Assembly: GCA_026414565.1 (NCBI GenBank)
Contig: JAOAIT010000065.1
Span: forward strand, 193-64,192
Source of the DNA: Verrucomicrobiia bacterium
GTDB taxonomy: Bacteria > Verrucomicrobiota > Verrucomicrobiia > Limisphaerales > Fontisphaeraceae
DNA length: 64,000 nt
Reading direction: 5' to 3'
Shown piece by piece: positions 324 through 30,515 of the stretch (positions within the stretch are counted from its first letter, which is position 1; the number at the start of each line of letters is the position of its first letter). The notes below the pieces were generated by a model. The model saw only the letters and a list, made by a program, of their open reading frames with translations, was not told the origin of the DNA and did no database searches. Both the position numbers and the translations under genes were made by a program.

Positions 324-2141
324 TTAAGCCGGTGTCGCGGCGGGTGAGACGGATGCGGTTTCAAAAAAACCATGCACCGGCCGCACCAGTTCAAAGTTGC
401 ACAGGCGCAGCTCGGGTTTGCCCAAGGTATCCCGCACCAGCCGATTCTCCGGATCAAAGGAAATCAGCAGATGTTCCGGCTCCAGATTCAAGTCCTCGTA
501 GCCACACCGTTCAAACCGCCGCCGGGCGCGCTCCATGAATTCCTCCAGCTCCTCATCGGTGATCAGGCCCTGGCGATGCGCCTCGCGCACATTGACGCCG
601 CGAAAATAACTGCCATCGCTGATGGCCAGCAGCACATCCGGCCCGTTCCAAAAGCCCCAGATCGAAATGTAGTCATGCCCCGGCTGCAGCAACGGCTCCC
701 CGTCCGGCATCAAAACTTCTGCAAATCTCTGGTAACGGCTGGCATCGGTAATTTTCCGCAGGTGATCATTCCGGCTCCCCGTCATATAAATCGCTCGCGG
801 ATAAACCGTCCGCGCCCCCGCGCCGCTCATGCCCAGTGCACAGGCAAACTCCTCAAAGGGGCTGTTGAAGCCGTACTCCAGAATGCGCCGGGAGCGCAGG
901 CTGTCGTCCGGCACGTGGGGCGTGGAGCCCATGCGGGAGACTTTCCACACCAGATTAATGTTGTCCTTCGTGCGCGTAAGGTAGGTTTCGGTGCGCTCGG
1001 ACAATCGTTTTTTGGGCGTGCGCCGCCAGCGCTCAGGCAGAAAATAGTTGAATAAATCGGGGTCCTTCCCCACCACCCAGAGGCGCCCGCCGGTGCTTTC
1101 GGCCTGACCGTAAATGTAATCCACCCCCAGGATGTTGACGGTTTTGAGGTGGGCCGGCAGGGGTTTGCTCGTATTCACCTCAAACCGCCGGGCCATGTGC
1201 TCCAAATAATACTGGCGGTTGAAGCTGGCCACCGCCTGCTCATGCTCCGGCGTGCGCTCCAACAGCTCATAGTCCACCACCGCATAAACCACCTGCCGGT
1301 TGCGGTCCCGCAACAGCGTGAAATCCGGCTGGGGCCGCACGATGATATGCTGGGGCTTCATGTCCACCATCCGGTAGCCCTTGTGCTCCAGTTCGTGATT
1401 CACCAGGCTGGTAACCGAAGCCAGAAATTCCTCCCGCGCCTCACCAGTCAGTTGAAACAAGGTGGCCGTTTCCACCAAATCCAGACCTTTGATCCATCCA
1501 TACAACAGCACATATTGCCGCAAGATGTCTATTTCCACCCCCGGCGACTGGGCAATTTTGGCGGCAATACGGTCCTGCGAGCGCCCGGTCTGCCAGAGCT
1601 GCAGCCGCTCGCTGGGCACATAGATGGCCAGCGGCTTTTGCGTGCGAATTCGAATGCGGGGCGGGCCGTATTCCCCCCGCCGCATCTCCATGACCAGCGC
1701 AAATTCCTCGAAAGGACTGTTGAACTCCGCGTTGATAAACTTGTTGACGGTGAGGGTGTCCAGCGGCACCACCTCGCCCACACGGGACCATTTGACCACC
1801 AAATGCAGCGAAACCCCCTCCACCGGTTTGGTAGGCACCCGGTACACCGTGCTGGTGCCGATCAGCCGCTCGCGCTTGGCCTCAAACCATTCCTTCCCAA
1901 ACCAGTTCTCCGGCAGCAAATGCTCCCAATACGGCAGCCCGTAGCGGGTCAGATATAATTCGCCGCCATCGGAAGTTTTCAAATGGGTATAGTCCACCCC
2001 CAGCAGGGATACGGCCGTGGCCTGCCGCGGCAAACGCGCCAGTTGTCGCGCCGAGAATGGCTGCCGCACAATCTGCTCCCCGGCCTCAGGAACCAGCCGG
2101 TCTTCCTGCCGGGGGGAAGCTTTGGCCATCGGCCGATTCAT
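324..2141 (-). CDS. Tandem protein-kinase-like protein: N-terminal module with catalytic-loop-like motif, C-terminal module degenerate
   Basis: 605-aa ORF with ATG preceded by AAGGTGGA. There are two internally homologous about 270-aa modules, both carrying FNSPFEEFA. Module 1 has VVKW, LEHKGYRMVDMKPQHIIV (resembles HRDxKPxN) and VVDYELL (DFG-like). Module 2 has NLEPEHLLI and LCNFELV at the equivalent positions. It lies 15 nt downstream of ogt. Confidence 0.6.
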   Translation of the reverse strand: MNRPMAKASPRQEDRLVPEAGEQIVRQPFSARQLARLPRQATAVSLLGVDYTHLKTSDGGELYLTRYGLPYWEHLLPENWFGKEWFEAKRERLIGTSTVYRVPTKPVEGVSLHLVVKWSRVGEVVPLDTLTVNKFINAEFNSPFEEFALVMEMRRGEYGPPRIRIRTQKPLAIYVPSERLQLWQTGRSQDRIAAKIAQSPGVEIDILRQYVLLYGWIKGLDLVETATLFQLTGEAREEFLASVTSLVNHELEHKGYRMVDMKPQHIIVRPQPDFTLLRDRNRQVVYAVVDYELLERTPEHEQAVASFNRQYYLEHMARRFEVNTSKPLPAHLKTVNILGVDYIYGQAESTGGRLWVVGKDPDLFNYFLPERWRRTPKKRLSERTETYLTRTKDNINLVWKVSRMGSTPHVPDDSLRSRRILEYGFNSPFEEFACALGMSGAGARTVYPRAIYMTGSRNDHLRKITDASRYQRFAEVLMPDGEPLLQPGHDYISIWGFWNGPDVLLAISDGSYFRGVNVREAHRQGLITDEELEEFMERARRRFERCGYEDLNLEPEHLLISFDPENRLVRDTLGKPELRLCNFELVRPVHGFFETASVSPAATPA

Positions 2142-2699: not shown

Positions 2700-3236
2700 C
2701 TATTGATTATTCCGCACCAGGGTGAGCAAAATCCACAACACCACCAAAAACGCCCCCACCAACACCAAGAAACGGTTGCGCGCCACCCGCTTTTCAAAAC
2801 GCAACGCCACCGGCTCCCGCAGTCCTCCATAGGCCAGGTACTTCACCAAAAGTGGGTTGGAGGGCGGCTGCGGTTGCCACCACGCCGTCAAACGCCGCCA
2901 AGCACCGGCCAGATCAAACTTGCGCACCCCCAGCTCATTGTACAACTCCGGGTGCGCCGCCGGCTCCGGCACTACTGCCGCCGGTTTGGGGGCCGGCCGC
3001 GGCATGGGCGGTGTCACAGCCGGCCGGGAAGGAACCTCCCGCGGGCGGACGGGCCCACCCCCGGGGGCCGCAGGCGGGGCCGTGCGCGGAGACGCCGCCG
3101 TCCCCACCGGAGAGGAGGGACGGGCCGGCAACTGCGCACTCAGCCGCCGGATGCGCGCCTCCAGCTCTGCAATCTGCGTGTTGAGATCGCGCTCCCGCGT
3201 TTGCAAAGGGTCTGCTTTGCGTTTGAGCCAGCCCAT
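2700..3236 (-). CDS. Hypothetical tail-anchored protein with N-terminal coiled coil, Pro-rich linker and C-terminal TM helix
   Basis: 178 aa. DLNTQIAELEARIRRLSAQL is followed by a P/A-rich stretch and a C-terminal FLVLVGAFLVVLWILLTLV. Its ATG lies 3 nt after the stop of the upstream gene. Confidence 0.5.
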   Translation of the reverse strand: MGWLKRKADPLQTRERDLNTQIAELEARIRRLSAQLPARPSSPVGTAASPRTAPPAAPGGGPVRPREVPSRPAVTPPMPRPAPKPAAVVPEPAAHPELYNELGVRKFDLAGAWRRLTAWWQPQPPSNPLLVKYLAYGGLREPVALRFEKRVARNRFLVLVGAFLVVLWILLTLVRNNQ

Positions 3237-3239
3237 GCC

Positions 3240-3920
3240 TTATTTACCGCGTATTAGCAAAACCATCACCAGCGTCAACAAGGCCAGCACCACCGGCCAT
3301 GTCAGCCCCAACCCCACCCGGCTCAGGGTCCAAAAATCCATGCCGGCCAGCGCCGGCGGGGCCGCCGGCGAAGCGGGCGGATTCCCCTCCCCGGCCGCCT
3401 CCGGAGCCGGCGTGTTGAGCAGCGGAAATTTCAACCGCGCACTGTTCCATTCCATGCGCGCATTCTCCAGCGTGGTAAGGGCGCGCGTGATTTCCGTTTG
3501 AAAGTTCTCTGCCGTCCACGACTCCTCTTGAATGGACTGGACCTTGTTCAATGCCTCCCGCAAGCCCGCCACGGCTTTGGCCATTTGTTCCGCCTCCTGC
3601 CGGGCGGAGAATTCGGCTTCCTCCAGCAAACCAATGCCGCGCGTCAGATGCCTCACCATCTCCTCGCGGCCGGTTTTCCATTCCGCCTGGCGCCGGCGCG
3701 TCTCCTCCAGGGCCGCCCGCTCGCGTTCGAGCTGCTCCTGCGCCTGGCGCAGCCGGGCCAGCTCGGCCTGCACATCCGCCACCTGGGACTCCACCTCCTC
3801 CCGCGTAGGCGCCCGCGCCACCCCAGAAGCGGGGGGCGCTGCCTGCTGGGCGGCCGGGGGGCGGCGTCCGTCTTGATAGTCCAAATCCACAAATTCGGAT
3901 GGATCCAATTTGGAAGCCAT
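3240..3920 (-). CDS. Hypothetical tail-anchored coiled-coil protein
   Basis: 226 aa with long E/R/Q/A-rich heptad-like segments (VADVQAELARLRQAQEQLERERAALEETRRRQ) and a C-terminal TM helix (GLGLTWPVVLALLTLVMVLLI). Confidence 0.5.
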   Translation of the reverse strand: MASKLDPSEFVDLDYQDGRRPPAAQQAAPPASGVARAPTREEVESQVADVQAELARLRQAQEQLERERAALEETRRRQAEWKTGREEMVRHLTRGIGLLEEAEFSARQEAEQMAKAVAGLREALNKVQSIQEESWTAENFQTEITRALTTLENARMEWNSARLKFPLLNTPAPEAAGEGNPPASPAAPPALAGMDFWTLSRVGLGLTWPVVLALLTLVMVLLIRGK

Positions 3921-4058: not shown

Positions 4059-4691
4059 TTAATCCGCGCCCAGCGCGATCTTCAGCAGCTCCTCCTGTGT
4101 CCAGTTGGTGTCGCGCCCCGCGGTGGCCTTGCGAATGGGCGCCACCTGCTCCGGCCGGACCGGCGAGGCCTGGTTGCCCCAGGCCTTGTTCATGCGGATG
4201 TAGGTCAACACCGCCGCAATTTGTTCATCGTTCAAGGTATCCTTCCACGGCAGCATGACGTTGTTAAAGGTGTAGGCTTTGCCGCTGACTGTGATGGGGC
4301 CGGCCATACCGTGGAGAACGATCCGAATGATCCGGTTGGGGTGCTCGGCCAATACCCAATCCGATCCTGCCAGGGGCGGCGCTTGAATCGGGCTGCCCAA
4401 ACCATCTGCCTGATGGCACGAGGCACAATAGGTAAGGTAAATGCCGCGGCCTTTCTCAAACAACGGGTCCGTGGCCGGTTTGGGATTGGCCTCCTCCACC
4501 TTGGCCAGCGAGGGATAAGGCGCATAAACGCGGGCGTTGAAACCACCCGCCTGCTTGTCCAGGCTCATCGTGGCCACATAGAACAAAACTCCCAACACTC
4601 CCACCAGCCACATGGGGGTGGGCGCCCTGCCCGCCTGCGGCTCGGCATCCTCCGGCAAGGACCGAAGTTCTATGGGGGAAGGCGCGCTCAT
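4059..4691 (-). CDS. Membrane-anchored monohaem c-type cytochrome (CcoP/FixP-like position in the cluster)
   Basis: 210 aa with an N-terminal TM helix (WLVGVLGVLFYVATM) and a single CASCH haem-c motif, with a downstream Met (NNVMLPW). Its ATG overlaps the stop of the CcoO-like gene (ATGA at 4688-4691). Confidence 0.75.
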   Translation of the reverse strand: MSAPSPIELRSLPEDAEPQAGRAPTPMWLVGVLGVLFYVATMSLDKQAGGFNARVYAPYPSLAKVEEANPKPATDPLFEKGRGIYLTYCASCHQADGLGSPIQAPPLAGSDWVLAEHPNRIIRIVLHGMAGPITVSGKAYTFNNVMLPWKDTLNDEQIAAVLTYIRMNKAWGNQASPVRPEQVAPIRKATAGRDTNWTQEELLKIALGAD

Positions 4692-5455
4692 GGTGCAGTG
4701 CTTTCAGAAACGGCGGGAGCTGCGTTGGTGTTCACCGCCTTGTTCACCTGGTTGGTCCTGGCGGCGGCCGCGGCGGCTTCTGCTGCTCCCGGCAGCGGCG
4801 CCTCAAAAACCGGCGCATCCGCCCGCAGGCTCATCAAGTACACCACCAACGCGCGAGCCCGCGGCCCGGGCACGATCTGCTCCGGCCAGTGCTCGGGGCT
4901 GCGCTGCTCGAACTGCAGCGCCAGCGGATCCCTTTCCTGGCCCGGGCGCAGCGGACGACGCTCAAACAAAAACGCATAAGAGGGCATCAGCGAGGCGGGG
5001 GCAAACTGCCGTGGATTGTACAAGTGCAGGTAAAGGCGTTGCTCCAGTTCCTCCACATGATTGGAAACCGTGAGAAACTTCCACGGCACTGCAAAACGTT
5101 TGGGCTCACGCAGTCCCAGGTTGGCCAGATCCGGCCCCACGCGCGCCGCCCCCACGAGCACCGGATGATCCGCCAGAAAATCCTGCGCTACCGTCCGCCG
5201 CACCCCCCAGCCACGTTCCACGTCATTTTCAGGGCGCACCTGTTGAGTGTGACATTCCGCGCAGCCCAGCGAGCGATACACCTGCAACCCCTGCTGCGCC
5301 AGACCCGGCCGCGCGGTGGGGTAATCCGGCTGCGGCGCAGGCTGCGGCACCGGCTCCAAACGGCCCAACTGCAGTTGCGGCGCCATCACCAGTCCCGCCC
5401 AGGACAAAGCCAGGGTGACAAAGGCGCTCAGGAATATCAACGCCCCGTGATTCAT
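4688..5455 (-). CDS. ccoO: cbb3-type cytochrome oxidase subunit II-like (CcoO/FixO-like) monohaem cytochrome c
   Basis: I prefer the start MNHGALIFLSAF at 5455: GGAGGTGG lies upstream and the ATGA overlaps the CcoN-like stop. Motifs QVYRSLGCAECHTQQVRP, GPDLANLG and HLYNPRQFAPASLMPSY match CcoO signature regions as I recall them. Confidence 0.75.
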   Translation of the reverse strand: MNHGALIFLSAFVTLALSWAGLVMAPQLQLGRLEPVPQPAPQPDYPTARPGLAQQGLQVYRSLGCAECHTQQVRPENDVERGWGVRRTVAQDFLADHPVLVGAARVGPDLANLGLREPKRFAVPWKFLTVSNHVEELEQRLYLHLYNPRQFAPASLMPSYAFLFERRPLRPGQERDPLALQFEQRSPEHWPEQIVPGPRARALVVYLMSLRADAPVFEAPLPGAAEAAAAAARTNQVNKAVNTNAAPAVSESTAP

Positions 5456-6915
5456 GCCGCCACCTCCTTCGCCACGGGGGCCGTCACCGGGCAACAGCTT
5501 CCGCGCAAGGCGCAAAGCATCGCCCGGCTGCCTTGATACACCACGGCAATTCCCAGGGCGCTGCCGCCGAGAACCACCGCCAACAACCCCACCCCGGCCA
5601 GTTTAAGCCCCGGCAGCGCGGCCGTCAGTGAAGTCATAAAAGGTGTGCGCCAATCCGCCAGGGCGGCGGCCTGTGCATTGCCCGCCCACAACCAGCCCAC
5701 GGCCCACAGCACCGCCCCCCCTGCCAGTGCCAGCGCCATCCCGCGGCTCGTGGCACAGGTGCATCCCTCGCGTCCACAGGCCAGCCGGGGCACCACATAC
5801 ATCATGCCTCCCGCCAGCGCGGGCAGCGCAAATCCCAGCAGCCACAAAGAAGGACGCGCAGCCGTGAGATACGTCAAGTTCACCACCTCCTGCAACGCCG
5901 GCCGCGAGACTACCGCCTGCCAGATCACCACCACCATCCACATCCATAGTCCAAACAGGCTCAGCCCCAATCCCGGCTGGCGCCATACCCCGCGGTAATT
6001 GCCGCCCAAGGTATGATACACGTTCAGGGCCAGTGCGATGACCGCCACCAGCATGAGCACATCGGCCACCGCGCTCACTGCCGGCAACCAGCGCGGCACC
6101 GGCAAAGCATAATGAAAACCGCTGGCGGTCCCGAATACCGCCACCACCCAGAACACCATCTTGCTCAGCGGCGCGCTGTGCAGCGCCCGCCCCGCATAAC
6201 GCGGGAGAAAATAGAAGGCCGCACTTAGCCCGGCCGCCGTCAGCCACAGGGTCAGCAGATTATTCGCCAGCCAGGTGCTCACCACCACCTGCATCACCCC
6301 GCGCGGCGGCACGCATTGCAGCAACACGATGCCCACGCTCATCAGCCAGAAAAACCAGAACAGCCCCGCCATCATCCACCATTGCGAGGGATAAACCGAC
6401 TCCCGCCGGCGATGCTGCAAGGTCAACCACGCGCTGACCCCCAACCCCGCCAGGCCAGCCCACATCAAGCCGCTCCCGTAAAGCGGCGCCCCCCACAGCG
6501 GATAGCCTGTGGCGTCCCCCGCCAGAATGCCCACCCCGCCCAGCAACACGCCCACATTCCACAAGACCCCGCCCAGAAAGGTCAGCCAGCGCTGCTGCAA
6601 ACCCACCCCGCCCAACCGGGCCAGCATCCACAAGCCCAAGCCCACAGCCGCCTGCGAGGCAAAACCATAAAACAACACATGCTGCGCCGCCGGCCACAAA
6701 CGGCCATAGGAAGACCACGCCGCCTGCCCCAGCGTCTCCGGCGCCAGCAACTTCCACCAGGCCCACCCCGCCAGCACCAGCCCCACCACCAGCCAGCCTG
6801 CCGCCTTCACCATCAGCCACAACACCGGCCAGCGCGATGCGGCATCCACTTCCGCCGGACTCAGCGGCGGGCGGGACTTTGCAACCACCTCACTCATGCC
6901 AGACGTTTGCACCAA
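5452..6915 (-). CDS. Haem-copper-oxidase subunit I-like (CcoN-like) polytopic membrane protein lacking most canonical His ligands
   Basis: 487 aa with about 12 hydrophobic segments. CcoN-like motifs are WPAAQHVLFYGF, AAFYFLPR and GFHYALPVPRW, but the whole ORF contains only 5 His. See findings. Confidence 0.65.
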   Translation of the reverse strand: MVQTSGMSEVVAKSRPPLSPAEVDAASRWPVLWLMVKAAGWLVVGLVLAGWAWWKLLAPETLGQAAWSSYGRLWPAAQHVLFYGFASQAAVGLGLWMLARLGGVGLQQRWLTFLGGVLWNVGVLLGGVGILAGDATGYPLWGAPLYGSGLMWAGLAGLGVSAWLTLQHRRRESVYPSQWWMMAGLFWFFWLMSVGIVLLQCVPPRGVMQVVVSTWLANNLLTLWLTAAGLSAAFYFLPRYAGRALHSAPLSKMVFWVVAVFGTASGFHYALPVPRWLPAVSAVADVLMLVAVIALALNVYHTLGGNYRGVWRQPGLGLSLFGLWMWMVVVIWQAVVSRPALQEVVNLTYLTAARPSLWLLGFALPALAGGMMYVVPRLACGREGCTCATSRGMALALAGGAVLWAVGWLWAGNAQAAALADWRTPFMTSLTAALPGLKLAGVGLLAVVLGGSALGIAVVYQGSRAMLCALRGSCCPVTAPVAKEVAA

Positions 6916-6918: not shown

Positions 6919-7293
6919 TTATTCGTAAGGGTTGGCCGGCGCCGGGGGCTTGGCCGAAGCCTTTTCCAGTCGCTGCAGCAGCAGTGTGCGTCCCTGGGCC
7001 GGATCCGCCCATTCGCGCGCCACCAATTCCATCGCGCGCGTCACCGGCAGCCGCACCAGGCCTTTTGTCTGATCCACCCAGCCATAATTCTCCAACGCCT
7101 CCTGGTTGGCCGCCTTCAACTCGGCCAGCGCCTTGGCCCGTTCCTCCGCCCGGCGCGCGTTCAAATCCGGCGGGCGGGTGTAATGAACCATCAGCCCCAC
7201 CAGCAGCAGGATGGTGGCGAGGGCCGTCACCACGGCGGCGGCGTTGGCCCACCGCCGGCGATTAAGCTGGGACACTGCTTCGCTCATGCTCAT
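6919..7293 (-). CDS. Small single-TM protein between actF and the oxidase-like genes (possible ActG-type subunit)
   Basis: 124 aa with an N-terminal TM helix (AAAVVTALATILLLVGLMV) followed by a soluble helical domain. It is tightly packed, 8 nt after actF and 3 nt before the CcoN-like gene. The assignment rests on position only. Confidence 0.4.
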   Translation of the reverse strand: MSMSEAVSQLNRRRWANAAAVVTALATILLLVGLMVHYTRPPDLNARRAEERAKALAELKAANQEALENYGWVDQTKGLVRLPVTRAMELVAREWADPAQGRTLLLQRLEKASAKPPAPANPYE

Positions 7294-7301: not shown

Positions 7302-8546
7302 TTATTTGGCCCGCCCCGGCACCGCCGACGCCGGCGGCACATAAACGCCCATGGTTTCCGCAATGCGCGGATCGCGCTGCGGATAGGGCGGATGCGCCTG
7401 GAAATACCGCAGGAATACCATGCCCAACACGCCGCCAATGAAGGCCAGCGCCGCCACATCCAGCCAGTGCACCCGCAGGCCGTCAGGATGCAAGACCGGC
7501 TTGATGTTGAAGGTCATGTCCGCGTAATGCATCAACCAGGCCCACACGCACATGGGCACCATCACCTGCAGCGACAGCTTGGCATCAATCCGCAACAGGG
7601 CCAGGAAGGGCAGGAAAAAGTGACCGAACATGATAATCAGCCCCAAATCCCACCACGTGCCCTGCTCCCGCTGCACATACCAGAACGTTTCCTCCGGGAT
7701 GGCCGCATTCCAGATCAGAAAGTACTGAGAAAAGGCGACGTACGCATAAAACACCGTGAAGGCGAAGAACAGCACGCCCGTGTCGTGAAAGGTTTTGGTT
7801 TGCACCACCGCCTGCAGCGGCCCGGCCTCCCTGAGTTTCAAGGCCAGCAGATACGTCGTGGCCAGCGTCACCCACACGCTCCCCGCAAAGTAGTACACCC
7901 CGTACATGGTGGAAAACCATTGATGCTGCAGCGATTTCATCCAGAAAATCGCCCCCAGCGTCAGGCTCACGGCAAACAGGAAGATGCCCGCCGCCGACCA
8001 CCGCCGCATGGCAAAGGTCTCCGCCGCGGCGCCGGTGACATCCTGCCGCAGCGAAAAGCGCCGCAGTTGCCACGCCAGCAGCGACCACAACAAAAACAAC
8101 CCCGCCGACACCGCCAGCCAGACCGGTTTGTTGAACAGGACATGCTTCACGTGCAAAGCGTGATCCTGATGCGGGTCCAGCGCCATCCACCGATAGATGT
8201 AATCCTCCGGACGGGCGAGCAGGGCGTTCAAGGCAATCGGCACAAACAACACCCCCAGCACCGGCAACAACCAGGCCATGTGCTCCCACACCCGCCGCAG
8301 CGGCACCATCCATTGCGAGTCAAACAGGTGATGCATCATCACCAGAAACAGCGCCCCCAGACTCAAACTGAGGAAAAACATGAAGGCGGTCAGGTACGAG
8401 TACCCAAACTGTTTCGGCCACCAAATGGCCCCCGCCAGACAGAGCAAGCCGCCGGCCACCGCCAGCACCAGCGGCGCCCGGGCCAACCGGCCCAGCTCCA
8501 GTTTCGCGGCCGGCATGGGAGCATGTGAACTTGTGCTCATGGTCAT
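7302..8546 (-). CDS. actF: Alternative Complex III subunit ActF (polytopic membrane subunit)
   Basis: Polytopic membrane protein in the ActF position after actE. The likely start is MTMSTSSHAP (ATG 8546), 14 nt after the actE stop. The track ORF extends to 8654 but overlaps actE. Confidence 0.7.
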   Translation of the reverse strand: MTMSTSSHAPMPAAKLELGRLARAPLVLAVAGGLLCLAGAIWWPKQFGYSYLTAFMFFLSLSLGALFLVMMHHLFDSQWMVPLRRVWEHMAWLLPVLGVLFVPIALNALLARPEDYIYRWMALDPHQDHALHVKHVLFNKPVWLAVSAGLFLLWSLLAWQLRRFSLRQDVTGAAAETFAMRRWSAAGIFLFAVSLTLGAIFWMKSLQHQWFSTMYGVYYFAGSVWVTLATTYLLALKLREAGPLQAVVQTKTFHDTGVLFFAFTVFYAYVAFSQYFLIWNAAIPEETFWYVQREQGTWWDLGLIIMFGHFFLPFLALLRIDAKLSLQVMVPMCVWAWLMHYADMTFNIKPVLHPDGLRVHWLDVAALAFIGGVLGMVFLRYFQAHPPYPQRDPRIAETMGVYVPPASAVPGRAK

Positions 8547-8560
8547 GATTCCAGCAACTA

Positions 8561-9175
8561 TTACTTCAATCTCGCCCGCATCTCCTGCGGCACATCCTCC
8601 ACCGTCCCCAGGCGGGCCAGTTGCAACGCCCGCAGGTAGGCAATGATGGCCCACCGATCCTCAATCGCGATTTGCGCGGCGTAACCGCTCATCAGGTTTT
8701 TGCCATGACTGATGGTGTTAAACAGCTCGCCATCGGCCAGCTCCACGATGCGCTTGTCATGCAGATTGGCCACCACCCCCATGGCCCCGATTTTCTTGGT
8801 AATGCCGTTGCCGTCCGCCTGCGCCCCATGGCAGGGCGCGCAATGAATCAAATACCGCTCCTGCCCCCGCGCCAGCATCGCGTGGGTCACCGGCGCCGGC
8901 AGGGATGCCACGAAATTCGTGGTGCCCGGCAGCCGGCCCGTGTTCCAGGGCGTGTCCTCATACGGTTCGCCGCGCGCAATGGTGCCCGCCGGCCGTGGAC
9001 GGCTCCCGCGTTGATCCGCAAAAAACTCGCTTTGAAACTGCGGCCGCTGTTTGGGCTGGCGGACCATGTCCGCAAAAATTTCGATGGGCGGCCGCCGCGA
9101 CGGGCTGCCGCGGAATCCCGCAATGGCCACCACGGCCACCAACACCGCCACAAAGGTTAGCAGGATGTATCGCAT
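8561..9175 (-). CDS. actE: Alternative Complex III subunit ActE (monohaem cytochrome c)
   Basis: Single CAPCHG motif and an N-terminal signal/anchor (MRYILLTFVAVLVAVVAIAG). The ATG at 9175 lies 2 nt after the actD stop, with GGAGGA inside the actD 3' end. Confidence 0.75.
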   Translation of the reverse strand: MRYILLTFVAVLVAVVAIAGFRGSPSRRPPIEIFADMVRQPKQRPQFQSEFFADQRGSRPRPAGTIARGEPYEDTPWNTGRLPGTTNFVASLPAPVTHAMLARGQERYLIHCAPCHGAQADGNGITKKIGAMGVVANLHDKRIVELADGELFNTISHGKNLMSGYAAQIAIEDRWAIIAYLRALQLARLGTVEDVPQEMRARLK

Positions 9176-9177
9176 GG

Positions 9178-9717
9178 TTATTCCTCCACCCACTCGATGT
9201 GACGGCTGCCCAGCCGCTCCAGCATCTGGCGCGTCTCGGTGTCCGAATACTTCGGGTCATCCGTCTCAATGACCACGTAAAACTTGTCGTGCGTGGCCTG
9301 TTTGAACCGCCGGTTCTTCAGCAGGGGATGATGCAGGCGCGGCAGGCGGTTCAGAAACAACATCCCAAACAACGAGCCAAACGCCCCCAATAAAATGGTC
9401 AATTCGTAGCTCGGCGGAAACGACGACAGCGGACTGTAGAATGGCTTGCCGCCCACCAGGATGGGATAGTCCACCGCATTCATCCACCAAATCATGAGCT
9501 GCCCCAGAGCAAAGCCCGTGGCCCCGCCGATAAAGGTGAACCAGCCCACCGGCGAGTTCTTTAATCCCATCGCCCGATCCATCCCATGCACGGGGAACGG
9601 CGTGAACACATCCCACCGCCGAAAACCGGCGTCACGAATCGCCTCCGCGGCATGCAGTAATGCCGCCGGCGTGTCGAACTCCGCCAGTATGCCGTACACC
9701 TGTCGCGGCGCGCTCAT
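9178..9717 (-). CDS. actD: Alternative Complex III subunit ActD (DUF3341-type membrane protein)
   Basis: 179 aa. [25 protein letters not shown] is typical of the ActD/DUF3341 N-terminus, followed by two TM helices. ATGA overlap with actC at 9714-9717. Confidence 0.8.
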
Positions 9718-11162
9718 GCGTGGTGCCCTCCTTCCTTCGCCCCGCCCAGCGGATGGTGCGGGTCGGCCTGCGGCGTAATGCCTTTGACCTCACTGATGGC
9801 AATCATCGGCAGGAATCGCATAAACAACAGGAACAACGTCAGGAACAGTCCAAACGTCCCCACAAAGGTCAAGATGTCCACCTTCGTGGGGATGAAATAA
9901 CCCCAGTTGGACGGCATGAATTCACGGGCCAGCGTGGTGGCGATGATCACAAACCGCTCAAACCACATGCCAATGTTCACCACAATTGAAATGATGAACA
10001 CCGCCCACATGTTCTGCCGGATGTGCTTGAACCAGAACAACTGCGGCGAAATCACGTTGCAGGTGATCATGATCCAGTAGGCCCACCAATACGGCCCAAA
10101 CGCGCGAAACTTGAAGGCGTCCAGCTCGTAGGGATTCCCGCCATACCAGGCGATGAAGAACTCCATGCCGTAGGCGTAGCCCACAATCGAACCGGTGGCC
10201 AGCACCACCTTGCACATCAAGTCCACATGGCGCTTGGTGATGATGTCCTCCAAATGACACACCGACCGCAGCGGCACCAGCAGCGTCAACACCATGCCAA
10301 ACCCGCTGAAAATTGCGCCGGCCACAAAGTAGGGAGGAAAGATGGTGGTATGCCAGCCCGGCAACTGCGACACCGCAAAGTCAAACGACACGATCGAGTG
10401 CACCGAGAGCACCAGCGGCGTGGACAGGCCGGCCAGCAGCAGATAGGCCTTCTCATAGTGGCTCCAATGCCGGTTGGATCCCCGCCAGCCCAGGGCAAAC
10501 AAACCATACAGAATCTGCCGCAGTTTCGTCTTCGCCCGATCCCGCATCACCGCCAGATCCGGAATCAACCCCATGTACCAGAACAACACCGACACGGTGA
10601 AGTAGGTGGACACCGCAAACACGTCCCACTCCAGCGGCGAGCGAAATTGCGGCCAGATGTTGTTGGAGGTTGGGATCGGCAGCAGCCACCACGCCAGCCA
10701 CGGCCGGCCGGTGTGCACCAGCGGAAAGATGCCGGCGCACATCACCGCAAAGATGGTCATGGCCTCCGCGGCGCGATTGATGCTCGTGCGCCAGCGCTGC
10801 CGCAGCAAAAACAGAATGGCCGAAATCAGCGTGCCCGCGTGGCCGATGCCGATCCAGAACACAAAGTTGGTGATGTCCCAGGCCCAGGCCACCGGATGAT
10901 TCAAGCCCCAGACGCCGATGCCCGTGCTGATCAGATAGGCCAGCATCACAAAGCACAACACCATCACCGACGCGCTGATGCCAAAGGCCACCCACCACCA
11001 GCGCGGAGTTTTGCCCTCCGCCACACCGGCAATGTGATCGGTGATCCAGCCCAGCGAGCGGTTGTTTAACACCAGCGGCTCGCGCTCCAGTTCCGGCGGC
11101 GGGGCTTCCACCCGCACGTTGGCCGCGGCCGTCAAGGCGGTGGGAGAGGTTGCGTGCGCCAT
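9714..11162 (-). CDS. actC: Alternative Complex III subunit ActC (NrfD/PsrC-like quinol-interacting membrane subunit)
   Basis: 482 aa polytopic protein with NrfD-like sequence ([35 protein letters not shown]). TAATG overlap with actB at 11162. Confidence 0.85.
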
Positions 11163-14100
11163 TAGTGGCCTCCTTTCCCGGTGGGCGCGCCGTGCGTCTC
11201 GAACGGCGAGCCATGCCGTTGCATGTACTCCTGCAAGGCCGCCGGATGCGGCTGCTCAGGGTTGAAATCAGGCATACGTTCGTTGGGATTGCGCACCCGC
11301 GCCAGATACGTCGTGCGCGGGCGGGTATCCAGATATCCTAACATGCTGTAGTTGTGCTCCAATCGGCGCCATTGCGACACCGTGCTCTCCGGATCAGACA
11401 CATCGCCAAACACAATCGCCTCCGCCGGGCACGCCTGCTGGCAGGCCGTCTTGGGAATCGTCCCCTCGCTCTCCCGCAGTCGCACCTCGCCCGAGGCGCG
11501 GGCTTTGACCTTCTTGGCGATCTTCGCCTGCTCGATGCGCTGGATGCAGTAGGTGCATTTTTCCATCACGCCGCGCATACGCACGGTCACATCGGGGTTG
11601 CGCACCAGCTTCAACAAATCCCATTCGTCCGCCGGCACCGTGCCGCGGTCCGGGTCCTTGAACCACCGTGCCAGCTCCCACTGGCCATCAGGATTCCGGC
11701 TGAAGGGGCTGCGATACAAATCATCCTTGGGCCGGCGATTGTAATCAAAGAAGTTGAACCGCCGCACCTTGTAAGGGCAGTTGTTGCTGCAATACCGCGT
11801 GCCCACGCAGCGGTTGTAGGTCATCAGATTCAACCCCTCGTCATTGTGCACCGTGGCGTTCACCGGGCACACATTCTCGCACGGCGCATTTTCGCAGTGC
11901 AGGCACATCACCGGTTGATAGGCAATCTGCGGATTCTCCACGCTGCCCGCATAATACCGGTCCAACCGCAGCCAGCTCATCTCCCGGCCCCGGGTCACCT
12001 GCTCCTTGCCCACGATGGGAATGTTGTTCTCACTCTGGCAGGCCACCATGCAGGCCGTGCAACCCACACACGCCGTCAAATCCACCACCATCCCCCACTG
12101 ATGCATCCCCGTCAGCGCCGGCCGCGGGTAAATGGGCCGTGGATTGCCCTGCGCATCCTTGGGAATGTGTCCTGTGTGGGAGGGCGCATCCAAATCCATG
12201 TGCTTCGCGAATTGCGGATGCTTGTCGAACTGCGCCTTGTTGATCTCGCGCACCAGCGGACGTCCCTCCATCGCCCCGTGCTCCTGCGTGCTGGCCAGTT
12301 GCCGCGTCACCCCGGGCAACGGCCGCAACTGCGCCCCGCCCGCAAAATGCGCCTCGTCCAGCTTGACCCGGTAGGCATTGAAGCCCGCCGCCGTGCCGTC
12401 AGCCAGCCGCCCGATGCGCCCGGTCTTTTCCCGGCCGTAACCCAGCGGGAGGCCCACCACAAAATCGGCCATGCCGGGCTGAATCCAGACGGCGCCGCTG
12501 ACTTTGGCGCCATTCAAAGTGATCTCCGCCACCGGGTTGAAGAAAAGTCCCTTCTCCGCCTTGGGGCCCCGCGCTTTTTCATCAAAGCCCTCCAAGCCCA
12601 GCGCCTTCGCCGTCGCCGGGCTGAGCAGGATGGCATTGTCCCACGTCAGCTTGGTGATGGGATCCGGCGTCTCCTGCAGCCATCCGTTGTTGTTGAAGCG
12701 GCCGTCATCCACGCTGTAGCTCCGCTGAAACACCAGCTCGAGGCTTTGCGCCGAGGGCGCAGCCGCCGGGCGGGCGGCCGCCAGCGCTTTCTGCACCGCG
12801 CCCGTCTGGAGCTGCCCGCTTACAGGCGCGGGGGCCGATCCCGCCTGAAAACCATCATGTAAAAACTTCTTCCATGCCTCCTCCTGGCGGCCGTGCAGGC
12901 CAAAGAACGTCTCCCGCACGATGTCATAGGGCCGCGTGACCTCCATCCCCCCCAGCCGCGCCAGCACTTCCAGCTCGGTGATGCCGCCAAACAAGGGCTC
13001 AATCAGGGGCTGCACCGGCACCAGCGTGCCGTCGGCCGTCCGCGCGTCGCCCCAGCTCTCCAGGTAATGCAATTGCGGCAGATGCCAGTCGCAGCTCACG
13101 CTGGTTTCATCCTCGTAATAGCCCAGACGCACCACCCGCCGCGCCTGCCGCTGCACCGTTGCCCAGTTCAGGGAGGCGGGCGCCGTGTAGGCCGGGTTGC
13201 CGCCGCATATCACCAGCGTATCCACCTGCCCGGCCTTCAGGGCCGCGGCCAGCTCCGCCAGCGTGCCTTCCACCGGCTCCTTCGCCGGCAGCAACACCAG
13301 GGTTTGATTCAGGTTGTCCAGCGCCGCGTTGATCAGATGCGCCATCAGGTGCACCACCAACGGCTGGCGGTAGCCCGCCATGACCAGCCCGTTTTTACCC
13401 TGGCTCACCAGGTCCCTGGCGCACTCCTCAATCCAGCGGCTGTGCGCGCCCGCCGGCTGGGCCAGCGGCTTCAACAGGGCTGCCAGCTCGCCATACCGGC
13501 CGGTCTGCTGCAATACTGCCAGCGCCAGCCCCGCAGCCAGGGCCTGCACCTGCGAGCCTGGCAGGCGCAACCGATGATCCGCATTGGCCCCGGTCAGGGA
13601 AAACAACGGCTCGACGACATAAAGCCGGTTCATCACATCCCCCGGTTTGCGCACGCGCCGCCCCCGTGCAAACCGCCGCACATGCAGATAGGTATCCTCT
13701 TCGGCGCCGAGAAAGTCGGCGTCCAGGGACACAATCACCCGCGCCGCGTCCAGCTTAAAGTAGGGCCTCAACGGCTGCCCATAGGCCGTCGAAGCCGCCT
13801 GCCGGTGGATATCAAAATCCACCGCCTCGTGCACAAACCAACGGGCCTTGGGCAACCGTTGGCGCAAAGCCTCCTGGAGACGCTGCCTGGACGGCGAGCT
13901 GCTGCGCTCCAGCAAAAAGCTCCATCCCTCCCCCTGCCTGGCCGCCGCCTCCCGGCCCAGCGTGTCCAGCATGTCCAGCGCCTGCTCCCGCGAGCGCAAC
14001 TGCCCCCGCTCCAGGAAACGCATGGCGCGATCCGGATCATAAAGGTTCAATAACGAAGCCTGGGCAAACTGATCTGTGGCCCCGTTGCTGTCCGGATGCA

Positions 14101-14479
14101 GGGCGTTGCCCTCAATCTTCGTTGGCCGCCCGTCGTGGCTCTTCACCACCAGCGGGATGGCGCTGCCCCGCGTCGGATACGCGGTGGCGTAGTACACCGG
14201 CACCCCATGCACATAATGCTCCGGCTGCTTGCCAAACGGCATGATCTTTTCCTCCGGCCGCCGGCAGCCCGTCATGCCCAGCCCCGCCAGAAGGAACGAG
14301 GCGGACATGATCTTCACAAAGTGCCGGCGTGTCAGCGGATCCGTCAGCTCGCTGGCGCCGGCGGGAAATTCACGTTCAACCCACTCACGAAATTCGGGAC
14401 GCTCGGCCAGCTCATCCAGGCTGCGCCAGTACTTCGGGCCGGTCTCAGGTTCGGGACAGGGGGGAGGTATCGTCTTCAT
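11162..14479 (-). CDS. actB: Alternative Complex III subunit ActB (molybdopterin-oxidoreductase-like domain fused to a 4Fe-4S ferredoxin-like domain, Tat signal)
   Basis: The start MKTIPPP at 14479 overlaps the actA stop (ATGA). Twin-arginine motif [12 protein letters not shown] is present. C-terminal Cys clusters are [41 protein letters not shown] and CTYC. Confidence 0.85.
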
Positions 14480-15126
14480 CGGTGGCAGGCGGAGCAATGT
14501 TGGGAAGGATTGACTTTCCAGTCACGCACCGCTTTCTGCGCCCAGTCTTTGGGCAGGTGCTGATGCGGATCCCACGCCAGATCGGTCACCTTGTCGAGCG
14601 GCCGCAGATTCGGCTCCGGCGCCCGGTGACACTCCAGACAGAAGGCCATGCTCAGGGGCTGGGCATGCCGCACCTCTTCCATTTGATGAATGTTGCCATG
14701 ACAACTCAGACAGCTAATCCCGCGATTCACATGCACCGCGTGGTTGAAATACACATAATCCGGCAGTTTGTGCACCTGCACCCACGGAATGGGCCGGCCC
14801 GTCTGCGCGCTCTCCCGCACCAGCGCCAACCGCGGATCATCCTTTAACACCTGATTGTGGCAGTTCATGCAGGTGGCGGCGGAGGGAATGTTGGAGTACC
14901 AGGACTGCTCCACGCCGCTATGGCAATACCGGCAATCCATGCCCAACTGCCCCACGTGCGTGGCATGCGAAAACGCCACCGGCTGGATGGGCGTGTAACC
15001 CACCCGCGTGTACTTGGGCGTGAAATAATACCACAAACCCGCCACCGCGCCCCCCCCAAACAACAAAAGACTCATGAGGGCGTAAATCGGCAGCCGGTTG
15101 GTCCATTTAGGAAAAACATCCGACAT
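14476..15126 (-). CDS. actA: Alternative Complex III subunit ActA (pentahaem cytochrome c, membrane anchored)
   Basis: 216 aa with an N-terminal TM helix and five CxxCH motifs: CRYCH, CMNCH, CLSCH, CLECH, CSACH. Confidence 0.85.
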   Translation of the reverse strand: MSDVFPKWTNRLPIYALMSLLLFGGGAVAGLWYYFTPKYTRVGYTPIQPVAFSHATHVGQLGMDCRYCHSGVEQSWYSNIPSAATCMNCHNQVLKDDPRLALVRESAQTGRPIPWVQVHKLPDYVYFNHAVHVNRGISCLSCHGNIHQMEEVRHAQPLSMAFCLECHRAPEPNLRPLDKVTDLAWDPHQHLPKDWAQKAVRDWKVNPSQHCSACHR

Positions 15127-26429: not shown

Positions 26430-26810
26430 TTGCAGGCGCTGTCCCAAACGCTTAAAGCCCTGGCGGATCCCACCCGGCTCCGCCTCGTGCTGGCTTTGCA
26501 GCAGGGCGAGCTGTGCGTCTGCCAGTTGAACACGCTTTTCCCCTTCTCCCCCTCCACGTTGTCACGCCATCTGGCCGTGCTGGAGCGCGCCGGGCTGGTG
26601 CAGAGCCGCAAAGCGGGGCGCTGGGTGTATTATGCCCTGCTCCGCCGCGGCCAGCCGCCGGCGCTGCGTCAGTTGTTGCGCTGGGCCCTCGAACATGCGG
26701 GCCGGGATCCCCTGGCCAGGGAGGATGCCCTGCGTCTGCGCCAATGCCGGCGCTCCCGGAGCATGATTGCCTGTCCGCCGAGGGCAGGCGGAAAAACGCC
26801 GCGCACCTGA
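26430..26810 (+). CDS. arsR: ArsR/SmtB-family metalloregulator
   Basis: 126 aa with an apparent TTG start (a stop lies 12 nt upstream in frame). Contains LKALADPTRLRLVLALQQGELCVCQL (CVC metalloid site) and LSRHLAVLERAGLV (wHTH). Confidence 0.8.
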   Translation: MQALSQTLKALADPTRLRLVLALQQGELCVCQLNTLFPFSPSTLSRHLAVLERAGLVQSRKAGRWVYYALLRRGQPPALRQLLRWALEHAGRDPLAREDALRLRQCRRSRSMIACPPRAGGKTPRT

Positions 26811-26829
26811 TTTACCCATAATCGTTTTT

Positions 26830-27906
26830 ATGAGCGAAACGACAAAAATTGCCAAACGACTTAACTTCTTTGAACGTTACCTCTCCCTGTGGGTGTTGCT
26901 GTGCATGGGCGCGGGGGTGGCCCTGGGCAAGTTGGCCCCCGGCTTCATCAGTGCCTTGAGCAAACTGGAATTTGGCCAGGGATCACAGGTCAATGTGCCC
27001 ATTGCCATCCTCATCTGGCTCATGATCTATCCCATGATGCTCAAGATTGATTTTGGGTCTCTCCTGGAAGTGACCAAACGCCCCAAGGGCCTCCTGGTGA
27101 CGCTGTTTGTCAACTGGCTCATCAAACCGTTTAGCATGGCGTTTTTTGCCTGGTTGTTCATTCAAACCTTGTTTGCGCGCTGGATTGACCCGGAAACCGC
27201 CCGCAATTACACCGCCGGCTTGATCATTCTGGCCGCGGCCCCCTGCACCGCCATGGTTTTTGTCTGGTCTTATTTAACCGATGGCGATCCCGCCTACACG
27301 CTGGTACAGGTGGCCGTCAACGATCTGATCATGCTGTTTGCTTTTGCGCCCATCGTAATGTTTCTCTGCGGCGTGGCGAATGTGATCGTGCCCTCCAAAG
27401 TGCTGATCACCTCGGTGGTGGTGTTCATCGTCATCCCCCTGGCGGCAGGATTCCTGACCCGCACGCTGCTCCTCAAATCCCACGGCAAAGAGTGGTTTGA
27501 ACAGAGCTTCCTCCCGCGTTTTCATCCGGTCACCGTCGTGGCGCTGCTGGCCACGCTGGTGCTCATCTTCGCCTTTCAGGCCGAGAACCTGACCACCCGC
27601 TGGCTGGCGGTGCTCCTGCTGGCCGTGCCCATTCTGGTGCAGGTGTACTTCAACAGCTCCATGGCCTACCTGCTCATGCGCCTGTTCAAAGTCCCCCACA
27701 ACGTCGCCTCCCCCGGCGCGCTCATTGGCGCCAGCAACTTTTTTGAGCTGGCCGTGGCCGTGGCCATCACCCTCTTCGGCCCGGCTTCTCCCGCCGCCCT
27801 GGCCTGTGTTGTCGGCGTGCTGGTGGAGGTGCCGGTCATGCTCTCCGTCTGCAAGATCTGCAATGCATCGCGCGCCTGGTACCAGCGCGCCCTATCCGCC
27901 GTCTGA
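26830..27906 (+). CDS. acr3: ACR3-family arsenite efflux permease
   Basis: The start MSETTKIAKRLNFFERYLSLWV (ATG 26830) lies 20 nt after arsR. About 10 TM segments, with typical ACR3 regions IAILIWLMIYPMMLKIDF and LIILAAAPCTAMVFVW. Confidence 0.85.
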   Translation: MSETTKIAKRLNFFERYLSLWVLLCMGAGVALGKLAPGFISALSKLEFGQGSQVNVPIAILIWLMIYPMMLKIDFGSLLEVTKRPKGLLVTLFVNWLIKPFSMAFFAWLFIQTLFARWIDPETARNYTAGLIILAAAPCTAMVFVWSYLTDGDPAYTLVQVAVNDLIMLFAFAPIVMFLCGVANVIVPSKVLITSVVVFIVIPLAAGFLTRTLLLKSHGKEWFEQSFLPRFHPVTVVALLATLVLIFAFQAENLTTRWLAVLLLAVPILVQVYFNSSMAYLLMRLFKVPHNVASPGALIGASNFFELAVAVAITLFGPASPAALACVVGVLVEVPVMLSVCKICNASRAWYQRALSAV

Positions 27907-28079: not shown

Positions 28080-30515
28080 TTGAGCATGGACACAGGAGCC
28101 ATTTGCCTGCTGCTGGCCATAGGCCTGCCTTTGGTGGGTTTTCTGCTGCCAGCGTGGGCCGGAAGCAAATGGGGGCCGCGCGTCGCTTGGCTGGCGCTGG
28201 CCTTCCCCCTGGTGGCTTTTGGGGCGTTGCTTACGCTGGCGTTGTCCCTGCACTGGCCCGCCCGGCTGGTCATTGAAATCCCCTGGATTCCCACACTAGG
28301 GATCAACCTCTCCTTTCTGGTGGACGGGTTGTCTCTTTTCTTCGGTTTGGTGGTCAGTGGCATGGGCTGCTTGATCTTCTTTTATGCCGGCCACTATCTG
28401 GATGAACACTTTGAGCATCACGGCCGTTTTTACAGTTACCTCGTCCTGTTCATGGCCGCCATGCTGGGCACGGTTTTTGCCAACAACCTGCTGATGATGT
28501 TTGTGTTCTGGGAGCTGACGGGGCTGGCATCGTTTCTGTTAATCGGTTTTCTGCATGGCGAGGAGAGCTCGCGCGTGGGCGCCCGCCAGGCGTTGGTGGT
28601 GACGGCCGGCACCGGCCTGGCGTTGCTGGCGGGGCTGATCATGATCTACGCCGTCACCGGCACCTACGATTTTCATGCGCTGGCCGGCGCCGGCCTGCCG
28701 TGGTCACACTACGGCGGCTGGCTGACGGTGGCGATGGGCCTTGTGCTGCTGGGCGCGTTTGGCAAGTCGGCCCAGTTCCCGCTGCACTTCTGGCTGCCCA
28801 ACGCAATGGCAGCCCCCACCCCCGTCAGTGCGTACCTGCACTCGGCCACCATGGTGAAACTGGGGGTTTTTTTATGCGCCCGCCTGTTCCCCCTCTTTGC
28901 GGAGCAAGCCCTCTGGGCGCCGTTGGTCAGCATCGTAGGCTTCACCACCATGGCCTTTTGCGCCGTGCTGGCCCTGCTGGCGCATGATTTGAAGGCCATT
29001 CTCGCCTTTTCCACCTGCAGCCAGCTTGGTTACCTCATCGGGTACTACGGCCTTGGCCCCGCCGAAGGGGTCGAATACGACTACCTCCACATCTTCAACC
29101 ATGTGCTGTACAAGGGCAGTTTGTTCATGATTGTGGGCGTCGTCGCCCATGCCGCCGGCATCCGCGACATCCGCCAGCTCGGCGGCCTCTTCCGCCGCCT
29201 GCCCCTCCTGGGTTCAGCCACCCTCGTGGCAGCGGCGGCGATGGCGGGATTGCCCGGAACCACCGGCTTTTTGAGCAAGGAAATGATGCTTAAAGAGATT
29301 TTTGAAGCGCTCGGCCCGCATGAATTTCTGAGCTGGTTTGCCACTGCCTGCGTGCTCCTCACCAGCCTCGTCAAGGTGGCCTTCTCCACCCGTCTCTTCG
29401 TGAACATCTTTCTTGGACCGGAGCCGCCTGAGATCGCCCGGCAGTTTCATGCGCCTTCGCTGTGGATGCAGCTCCCGCCGGCCATCCTCGCAGGCGCTGC
29501 CCTGTTGTTTGGCGTGGCGCCGGCGCTGCTCGATGCCTGGTTTCAACCGCTGGCGGTTGCGGGCCTGAACCGCCCCGGCCATCTGGCTCTGTGGCATGGT
29601 TTCACCCGTGAGCTGCTGGCCAGCACCCTGATCGTCATCGCTGGCTTCGGCCTTTACTGGCTGGGCGTGCGCACCCGTTGGCGCTGGCATGAAATCCCGC
29701 GAAGCTGGCAATTTGACCGCTTCTTCGAGACCGCCCTGGAAGGCCTGGCCGCCTTCGCCAAGGCTCTGACGCGTTTTGTCCGCTCCGACTCCCCCACGGC
29801 CTATCTGCCGGTGGTGCTGGGTTTTGTCATCCTGACGGTGGGCGGCACCCTGGCCTGGCATTTCGGGCTGGATGCCCGTTTGCTCGAGCAAATCGCCGCC
29901 GCCGACTGGCCCAGACTTAATGCGATGCGCAGCCTGGTGGCCGCCTTGATCGTTCTGGCGGTGGGCGGCGTGCTCGTGTTGCAACGTTGGACCACCCAGC
30001 TCATTTCCCTCAGCGTGGCCGGCTTCTTGATTTGCTTTTACTTCGTTCTGTATCGCGCGCCGGACCTGGCGTTGACGCAAATCCTGGTCGAAGTGGTCAC
30101 CCTCTTCCTCATTCTGCTCCTCCTCGGACGCTTTCCGAAATCAGCCGAGGAGGGCGAGGTTTCCTGGCAGGCACCCGGCTGGCGGCAGGCCATCAACGCC
30201 GGTCTGGCCGCAGGCGTGGGCATTCTAACCACCGCCCTCATCCTGGTCGCCACCAGTCAACCGGCGCAACAACGCCTGGGTGACTTTTTCCTGGCCCAAA
30301 CTGTGCCGCTGGCCGAGGGACGCAACGCCGTGAACACCATTCTCGTGGACTTTCGCGGTTTCGACACCCTGGGCGAGATCGCCGTGCTGCTCATTGCCAC
30401 CCTCGGTGGACTGGGGCTGTTAATGCGCTATAAGCGCACCCGCGAGGAATACCAGCAGGGACCGCTGGGCCCGCCGGGCTTTGGCACGCTGCCCCCCGAA
30501 AAGGAGGAACCATGA
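28080..30515 (+). CDS. mrpA: Mrp-type Na+(K+)/H+ antiporter subunit A (NuoL-like, with MrpB-like C-terminal extension)
   Basis: 811 aa polytopic protein. NuoL/MnhA-like regions are LSFLVDGLSLFFGLVVSG, WELTGLASFLLIGF, GKSAQFPLHFWLPNAMAAPTPVSAYLHSATMVKLG and PGTTGFLSKE. Confidence 0.85.
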   Translation: MSMDTGAICLLLAIGLPLVGFLLPAWAGSKWGPRVAWLALAFPLVAFGALLTLALSLHWPARLVIEIPWIPTLGINLSFLVDGLSLFFGLVVSGMGCLIFFYAGHYLDEHFEHHGRFYSYLVLFMAAMLGTVFANNLLMMFVFWELTGLASFLLIGFLHGEESSRVGARQALVVTAGTGLALLAGLIMIYAVTGTYDFHALAGAGLPWSHYGGWLTVAMGLVLLGAFGKSAQFPLHFWLPNAMAAPTPVSAYLHSATMVKLGVFLCARLFPLFAEQALWAPLVSIVGFTTMAFCAVLALLAHDLKAILAFSTCSQLGYLIGYYGLGPAEGVEYDYLHIFNHVLYKGSLFMIVGVVAHAAGIRDIRQLGGLFRRLPLLGSATLVAAAAMAGLPGTTGFLSKEMMLKEIFEALGPHEFLSWFATACVLLTSLVKVAFSTRLFVNIFLGPEPPEIARQFHAPSLWMQLPPAILAGAALLFGVAPALLDAWFQPLAVAGLNRPGHLALWHGFTRELLASTLIVIAGFGLYWLGVRTRWRWHEIPRSWQFDRFFETALEGLAAFAKALTRFVRSDSPTAYLPVVLGFVILTVGGTLAWHFGLDARLLEQIAAADWPRLNAMRSLVAALIVLAVGGVLVLQRWTTQLISLSVAGFLICFYFVLYRAPDLALTQILVEVVTLFLILLLLGRFPKSAEEGEVSWQAPGWRQAINAGLAAGVGILTTALILVATSQPAQQRLGDFFLAQTVPLAEGRNAVNTILVDFRGFDTLGEIAVLLIATLGGLGLLMRYKRTREEYQQGPLGPPGFGTLPPEKEEP

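Follow-up and report, generated by a model that had tools for sequence, protein, structure and literature searches.

A CcoN-like protein lacking the canonical haem and copper ligand set, encoded next to Alternative complex III in Verrucomicrobiota

The DNA analysed here is a 64,000-nucleotide stretch (the window) comprising positions 193 to 64,192 of contig JAOAIT010000065.1 from a Verrucomicrobiia bacterium (Fontisphaeraceae; GCA_026414565.1). It encodes a protein, N, that resembles CcoN, the catalytic subunit of cbb3-type haem-copper oxidases (HCOs). N lies ninth in a minus-strand cluster whose genes all point the same way, ordered ActABCDEF–small gene–N–CcoO–cytochrome c. The Act genes have the set and order of Alternative complex III (ACIII), and their counterparts in Fontisphaera persica are 90–98% identical. 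ActA (14476..15126, minus strand, as are all genes of the cluster) is a pentahaem cytochrome c with five CxxCH motifs and a QrcA-like NCBIfam match. ActB (11162..14497) is a fusion of a molybdopterin-like and an Fe-S domain that carries a twin-arginine translocation (TAT) signal and has QrcC/QrcB-like, DsrO-like and TIGR04519 TAT-variant NCBIfam matches. ActC (9714..11162) is an NrfD-type, quinol-interacting membrane subunit, 98% identical to the PF03916 (NrfD) gene of F. persica and with a DsrP-like NCBIfam match, and ActD (9178..9717) shares 96% identity with the PF11821 (ActD) gene of F. persica. ActE (8561..9193) is a monohaem cytochrome c whose CxxCH motif reads CAPCH and whose homologues match PF00034 and PF13442. 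ActF (7302..8654), an NrfD-like membrane subunit, was assigned by synteny: it is 93% identical to the gene that follows ActE in F. persica and is present in all loci. Its start is probably near 8543, giving ∼412 aa. The small gene between ActF and N (6919..7293) encodes a 124-aa protein with a single transmembrane helix.

The preliminary description of this DNA reported N as an intact open reading frame (ORF) of 487 aa. This ORF is present at 5452..6915 on the minus strand, read from a TTG at 6915. Because homologues are 481 aa long and begin at the residue that matches M7, the start is probably the ATG at 6897, which yields a protein of 481 aa. N contains exactly five histidines (H79, H168, H246, H268 and H301), the number first given, and its canonical relatives have 15–22 each. 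The N stop codon overlaps the start codon of the next gene in an ATGA at 5452-5455, as also described previously, with GAAGGAGG before it; a second ATGA overlap, at 4688-4691, joins that gene to the one after it. The first of these partners (4688..5455, minus strand) encodes a CcoO-like monohaem cytochrome c of 255 aa with the motif CAECH and a 65-bit match to PF02433 (FixO). The second (4059..4691, minus strand), in the position of CcoP, encodes a monohaem cytochrome c of 210 aa with the motif CASCH and matches to PF00034 and PF13442. Both motifs agree with the earlier statement that the CcoO-like protein keeps CxxCH and is followed by a monohaem cytochrome c.

N belongs to the HCO superfamily by profile and by predicted fold, as had been proposed. 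It matched PF00115 (COX1) over residues 31–431 with 65.7 bits, against a Pfam gathering cut-off of 34.8. Its score against TIGR00780, the ccoN equivalog model, was 34.4 bits, below the cut-off of 583.15, and N does not qualify as a ccoN equivalog. An AlphaFold2 model built on 14 sequences had a mean predicted local distance difference test score (pLDDT) of 83 and a predicted template modelling score (pTM) of 0.85. The best Foldseek matches of this model in the PDB were CcoN chains (9g6b_A, 8smr_E and 3mk7, including the enzymes of Pseudomonas stutzeri, 3MK7, and P. aeruginosa, 8SMR), with template modelling (TM) scores of 0.82–0.88 at 18–20% identity. The corresponding scores against NorB of cNOR were 0.74–0.82, and cbb3 CcoN ranked above both NorB and the A/B-family subunit I. 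According to the model, N keeps the 12-helix HCO fold of cbb3 CcoN.

To locate the ligand positions, N was aligned with P. stutzeri CcoN (3MK7_A) as reference, once with HMMER and in two independent MAFFT family alignments. In the reference, H60 and H347 bind the low-spin haem b and H345 is proximal to the high-spin haem b3; H207, H257 and H258 are the CuB ligands, and Y251 is the cross-linked active-site Tyr. The same ligand table was obtained from all three alignments. The low-spin haem ligands H60 and H347 are replaced by A77 and S356, the haem b3 ligand H345 by R354, the CuB ligand H207 by N218, and Y251 by G262. The H257/H258 columns hold H268 and Y269 of the string GFHY, a single His whose register is ambiguous, and this is the sole ligand position that N may have kept. 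Of the active-site residues of CcoN, N therefore has one of the three CuB His at most; both haem b ligands, the haem b3 ligand and the Tyr that is cross-linked in the reference are gone. The preliminary description had regarded the first low-spin haem His as retained. This reading must be withdrawn, since H79 matches Asn62 and not H60. H79 was also considered as a shifted haem ligand and rejected: it lies two residues past the H60 position, in the column of the conserved Asn62, and is a His in the five closest sequences only. The broader claim, that N cannot hold the canonical ligand set, was upheld by each alignment. On this basis, N very probably binds none of the canonical cofactors and would be neither an O2 nor an NO reductase.

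N is one of many such proteins. A first database search returned 13 relatives, down to 34% identity, of which all except one were without most ligands. A scan of GTDB with one genome per species returned 484 loci, and the best 80 of these 484 were compared. Nearly all 80 were from Verrucomicrobiota (Pedosphaera and Limisphaerales, subdivision 3, and Opitutales); 45 had a ligand-less N and 35 were fully canonical (HHYHHHH). The recurrence of His-poor CcoN-like genes downstream of act operons, a check proposed at the outset, was thus seen in 45 of the 80 loci examined. A profile search over 1.84 billion 50%-identity representatives matched 3164 representatives at E ≤ 1e-3 and 711 at E ≤ 1e-30. 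In an alignment of 164 sequences (the query, the reference and the 150 best representatives, plus family members collected earlier), 145 had at most one of the six ligand His, 91 having none and 54 one. With the canonical P0012 as query, 4137 matches were obtained, the best 120 of which were listed. Several of the database records bear names at odds with their verrucomicrobial operon: L021, L026, L040, L017 and L083 are titled Akkermansia muciniphila, Chitinophaga pinensis, Bifidobacterium sp., Haliangiales and Ca. Acidoferrum, which probably reflects mis-binning or mislabelling of metagenome-assembled genomes (MAGs).

Across the ligand-less class, the losses extend well beyond the ligands. 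H60, Y251 and H345 were each absent from every ligand-less sequence among the 80 genomes, and the Y251 column held G, A or T in all 58 ligand-less sequences. Other residues that are invariant in canonical CcoN have gone too: R57 and R437, which contact the haem propionates; W203; Y223 (now F), S240 (now A), Y237, T215 and H337 of the proton path and cavity; and G211, G349 and G324, the glycines that pack against the haems, where bulky side chains now stand. In the subclade of the query, E122 and E125 are missing as well. The former ligand columns are hypervariable, running through A/Q/S/G, N/G/D/A or Q/R/K/V/L, among others. One subclade differs: in L011, L012, L019, L026, L047 and L051, all three CuB His are kept, with no haem ligand and no cross-linked Tyr. 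Its N gene in L012 (L012:10019-11467), for example, has the signature A-H-G-H-H-[QVI]-K. From their sequences, these proteins could have a copper-only site or could be at an intermediate stage of decay.

The gene neighbourhood of N separates the two classes as well. All 45 ligand-less loci have the layout ActABCDEF–small gene–N–CcoO, with or without the cytochrome c. Taking all ACIII-linked loci together, the order is ActABCDEF, small gene, N, CcoO and cytochrome c, with ccoS optionally before N and ccoI optionally at the end. In the canonical class, 33 of 35 loci have ccoS immediately before N, and many have ccoI downstream. By contrast, within the operon neighbourhood of each ligand-less locus, neither ccoS (0/45) nor ccoI (0/45) was found. 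As ccoS and ccoI occur in canonical loci only, the ligands and the genes for loading haem b3 and CuB have disappeared together. In both classes, each ACIII-linked locus contains the small single-transmembrane gene, and stand-alone cbb3 operons are without it; its product matched nothing significantly in Pfam, NCBIfam or the PDB and may be an ActG-like accessory subunit of ACIII. In F. persica (CP116615), the same operon is flanked by the same hisD/hisC, ogt and a gene for a 605-aa protein, and N is 75% identical. Some Limisphaerales and Lacunisphaera genomes (L027, L044 and L067) carry a canonical operon, ccoS-N-O-c-ccoI, that is not preceded by ACIII genes. An N-terminal motif, AE[VI]DAS.R.P, was considered as an ACIII docking element and rejected, as it also occurs in these three stand-alone canonical loci. 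In L067 and P0171 (712–718 aa), CcoN and CcoO are apparently fused in one ORF.

These data bear on whether N might be a redox or metal enzyme of new chemistry, with a non-canonical site that binds haem through non-His ligands or binds copper only. The subclade with all three CuB His and no haem ligands is in keeping with such an enzyme, as are the one His in the HH region of the query clade and its Cys-rich C-terminal stretches. However, the Cys motifs do not extend beyond the closest relatives, the propionate Arg and channel residues are lost, the haem-packing Gly positions have become bulky, and ccoS and ccoI are absent from ligand-less loci. Moreover, no newly conserved polar residue or alternative ligand was found at or near the old sites across the alignments of the ligand-less clade. 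Different chemistry, which the preliminary description had offered as an alternative, is disfavoured because the ligand columns are highly variable and no new polar residue has become conserved; we consider it hardly probable at all. It is distinctly unlikely, although slightly less so, that N has acquired another role within an obligate ACIII module, as a gated proton or ion path or through a conformational coupling that would make ACIII electrogenic, with a copper-only site in the AHGHH-K subclade. If it had, N would represent a functional class new to the HCO superfamily, and its operon a complex III architecture of a new type.

In neighbour-joining trees rooted on P. stutzeri, the ligand-less sequences formed one long-branched clade that adjoins or lies inside the canonical verrucomicrobial clade. 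With all columns included, this clade had bootstrap support of 58/60. The subclade with CuB His was recovered in 59/60 replicates and is nested within the ligand-less clade, not basal to it. From these trees, a single origin of the ligand-less clade is likely. In terms of known enzymes, N branches with or within the clade of ACIII-linked cbb3 oxidases from Verrucomicrobia and Planctomycetes. Taken with the fold and the ligand table, N most likely descends from the CcoN of a cbb3 oxidase linked to ACIII and has lost its catalytic function.

To evaluate the constraint on N, we calculated ratios of non-synonymous to synonymous substitution rates (dN/dS) by the Nei-Gojobori method, comparing the window with F. 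persica and with a second relative. N had dN/dS values of 0.18 and 0.26 and was the fastest-evolving gene of the operon, the remaining genes falling at 0.02–0.14: 0.02 for ActC, 0.04 for ActA, 0.03–0.06 for the 210-aa cytochrome c, 0.09–0.12 for both the CcoO-like protein and the small single-transmembrane protein, and 0.06–0.14 for ActF. At equal divergence of ActC (80–90% identity), N was 74% identical among canonical loci vs 50% among ligand-less loci, and CcoO 72% vs 55%; the substitution rate of ligand-less N is about twice that of the canonical class. Given dN/dS values of 0.18–0.26 and the lower identity at equal ActC divergence, N is under purifying but clearly relaxed selection.

A neutral relic, heading for loss and kept open only by its position between coupled, selected genes, might also be the fastest-evolving gene of its operon and have hypervariable active-site columns, and in two loci the N frame is in fact broken, by a frameshift in L022 and an in-frame stop in L036. 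Such a relic is nevertheless very unlikely. Ligand-less ORFs of 470–540 aa are intact in 43 of the 45 genomes and in ∼150 representatives, at divergences down to ∼32% identity, and an unconstrained 1.4-kb ORF at ∼65% GC would close over such divergence. The dN/dS values are far under 1, and ∼90 columns of N reach 85% conservation or more, among them structural Gly, Pro and Trp positions that active CcoN also has. N thus shows neither a broken frame nor a dN/dS near 1, in agreement with the original view that it is not a decaying pseudogene.

The partner cytochromes have retained what N has lost. The window CcoO aligned with solved CcoO structures (8smr_F and 3mk7_B; E = 4.5e-14) over the transmembrane anchor, CxxCH, GPDL and HLYNPR..MP. 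Among ligand-less loci, CxxCH was present in CcoO in 42 of 44, and the axial Met column was 98% conserved; the protein encoded downstream of N is therefore a CcoO with both its CxxCH and its axial Met. The third-subunit cytochrome c had CxxCH in 35/35 ligand-less loci. The motifs show both partner cytochromes c to be haem-competent still.

We suggest that, being without haem and copper, N would reduce neither O2 nor NO and would have been retained as a membrane scaffold for the CcoO-like and monohaem cytochromes c on or beside ACIII. Electrons from menaquinol would leave ACIII through ActA/ActE and pass via the haems of the CcoO-like protein and cytochrome c to a different acceptor, for example periplasmic reductases or a caa3 oxidase whose genes lie elsewhere in the genome, and not to a binuclear centre. 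A cofactor-free scaffold that holds the two cytochromes in an electron-exit module is the role to which we lean, with some reserve. A physical association of N, CcoO and cytochrome c with ACIII would fit the gene order, which does not vary, and the translational coupling. The preliminary description, too, had suggested that N may be non-catalytic and serve ACIII as a scaffold or an electron exit: the invariant ACIII synteny, the loss of ccoS and ccoI and the haem-keeping partners speak for it, and the role itself is one we infer. In support of another terminal acceptor, F. persica, the closest cultured relative, grows aerobically or by fermentation (PMC13608581); because it grows aerobically with a ligand-less N in its operon, its respiration needs another oxidase. 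In genomes of Limisphaera, caa3 and bd oxidases have been reported alongside a 'cbb3' (PMC13608581).

Alternatively, ACIII may depend on N as a structural subunit for its assembly or stability, through constructive neutral evolution of a former ACIII-cbb3 supercomplex, without electron wiring and with CcoO and cytochrome c as passengers. N always occurs with ActABCDEF and the small gene of the ACIII-linked loci of both classes, the selection on it is purifying but relaxed, and no gene for a downstream acceptor is linked to the operon, all of which would suit such a dependency. Against it, the haem motifs are preserved in CcoO and in the monohaem cytochrome, and both evolve under tighter constraint (dN/dS 0.03–0.12) than N, which argues that the c haems are in use. 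In addition, ACIII of other phyla is established to work without an HCO-like subunit (Rhodothermus and Flavobacterium structures, cited in PMC8361435). We therefore consider an assembly dependency unlikely.

Several observations weigh against the scaffold and electron-exit role, or against a single descent. First, flank-gene clustering detected no conserved gene for a downstream electron acceptor near the operon, nor any further conserved partner; only housekeeping genes recur, such as shikimate kinase. Second, N evolves 2–8 times faster than its neighbours, and its conservation could in part reflect constraints of membrane insertion or translational coupling in place of a scaffold role. Third, the two disrupted N genes (frameshift, L022:6168-7633; in-frame stop, L036:2750-4216) amount to 2 of the 45 ligand-less loci. 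Both are from soil MAGs of one study, with flanking N halves 86–93% identical to an intact relative, and the disruptions may be assembly errors or real decay. Finally, when the 63 class-diagnostic columns were removed, monophyly of the ligand-less sequences fell to 29/60 (∼48%).

The locus resembles several known systems in part. As in cbb3 oxidases, ccoO is immediately downstream of N and the third subunit is a c-type cytochrome; unlike CcoN, N is without R57, R437 and the proton-channel residues, and its cluster is without ccoS and ccoI. In the ACIII-oxidase superoperons and the ACIII-aa3 supercomplex (Flavobacterium johnsoniae, Rhodothermus marinus), ActABCDEF is likewise followed directly by HCO genes in one direction, and the canonical sister operons described here share this layout with an intact cbb3. 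In the window, by contrast, the catalytic subunit is without cofactor ligands, and because of this the ACIII-linked module is very probably not a terminal oxidase. Co-location of ACIII and cbb3 is known in Verrucomicrobia, including Methylacidiphilum (PMC6688271); no structure or biochemistry of an ACIII-cbb3 assembly was found in the literature searched.

Divergent HCO families without the active-site Tyr comprise NOD, a putative N2O reductase, eNOR, sNOR, gNOR and nNOR (Murali et al. 2024, PMC11214002). These also left O2 reduction and were recognized from active-site changes and gene context. However, these families retain the two haems together with a metal site, if modified, of three or four residues. 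According to that paper, no HCO family before gNOR had been seen to exchange any of its active-site His (PMC11214002). The ligand-less N clade has lost nearly all of these His and shows no replacement site. Parts of respiratory complexes that lack a cofactor site and are kept under selection as architecture follow the same principle as N, except that such parts are accessory subunits or domains beside an active core, whereas in N the catalytic core subunit itself appears dead. No published description of a ligand-less CcoN clade was found in the full-text literature searched, a body from which subscription journals are largely absent, so that an earlier mention is possible, for example in HCO classification papers.

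In public annotation (NCBI, JGI), the ligand-less proteins are named 'cbb3-type cytochrome c oxidase subunit I', and N is probably annotated wrongly as an oxidase. ccoN is routinely used as a marker of high-affinity, microaerobic respiration; if our reading is true, this inference is wrong for a large part of the Verrucomicrobiota, a phylum abundant in soil and freshwater. Recent genome papers on this order also name a cbb3 oxidase, whose gene may be of either class (PMC13608581). If true, N would also be the first case found of an HCO catalytic core subunit kept under selection without any cofactor ligands. The canonical sister operons and the subclade that has CuB His only offer a natural series in which to study the death of a respiratory enzyme and the forces that preserve its shell. 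N further provides a testable handle on electron exit from ACIII and on the existence of ACIII-cbb3 supercomplexes, with F. persica as a cultured carrier.

Directly downstream of the cytochrome c gene, the minus strand encodes a 226-aa coiled-coil protein with a C-terminal transmembrane helix (3240-3920), followed by a Pro-rich transmembrane protein of 178 aa (2700-3236). Both genes are conserved in F. persica and in L087, not in more distant loci, and neither has a family match. Apart from the N module, no oxidase genes were found within the window. The 605-aa protein (324-2141, minus strand) has no Pfam match; it is 91% identical to its F. persica counterpart, with a dN/dS of 0.06. The motif NSPFEEFA occurs in it twice, which suggests an internal duplication. 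On the plus strand, positions 28080-33387 contain an Mrp/Mnh-type multisubunit cation/proton antiporter cluster, whose first gene is a fused, MrpA-like gene with Proton_antipo_M and MbhD/MbhE domains. Upstream of this cluster are two short plus-strand ORFs (26430-26810 and 26767-27906) whose N-terminal sequences resemble, by their look, a putative ArsR-type regulator and a putative arsenite-efflux permease.

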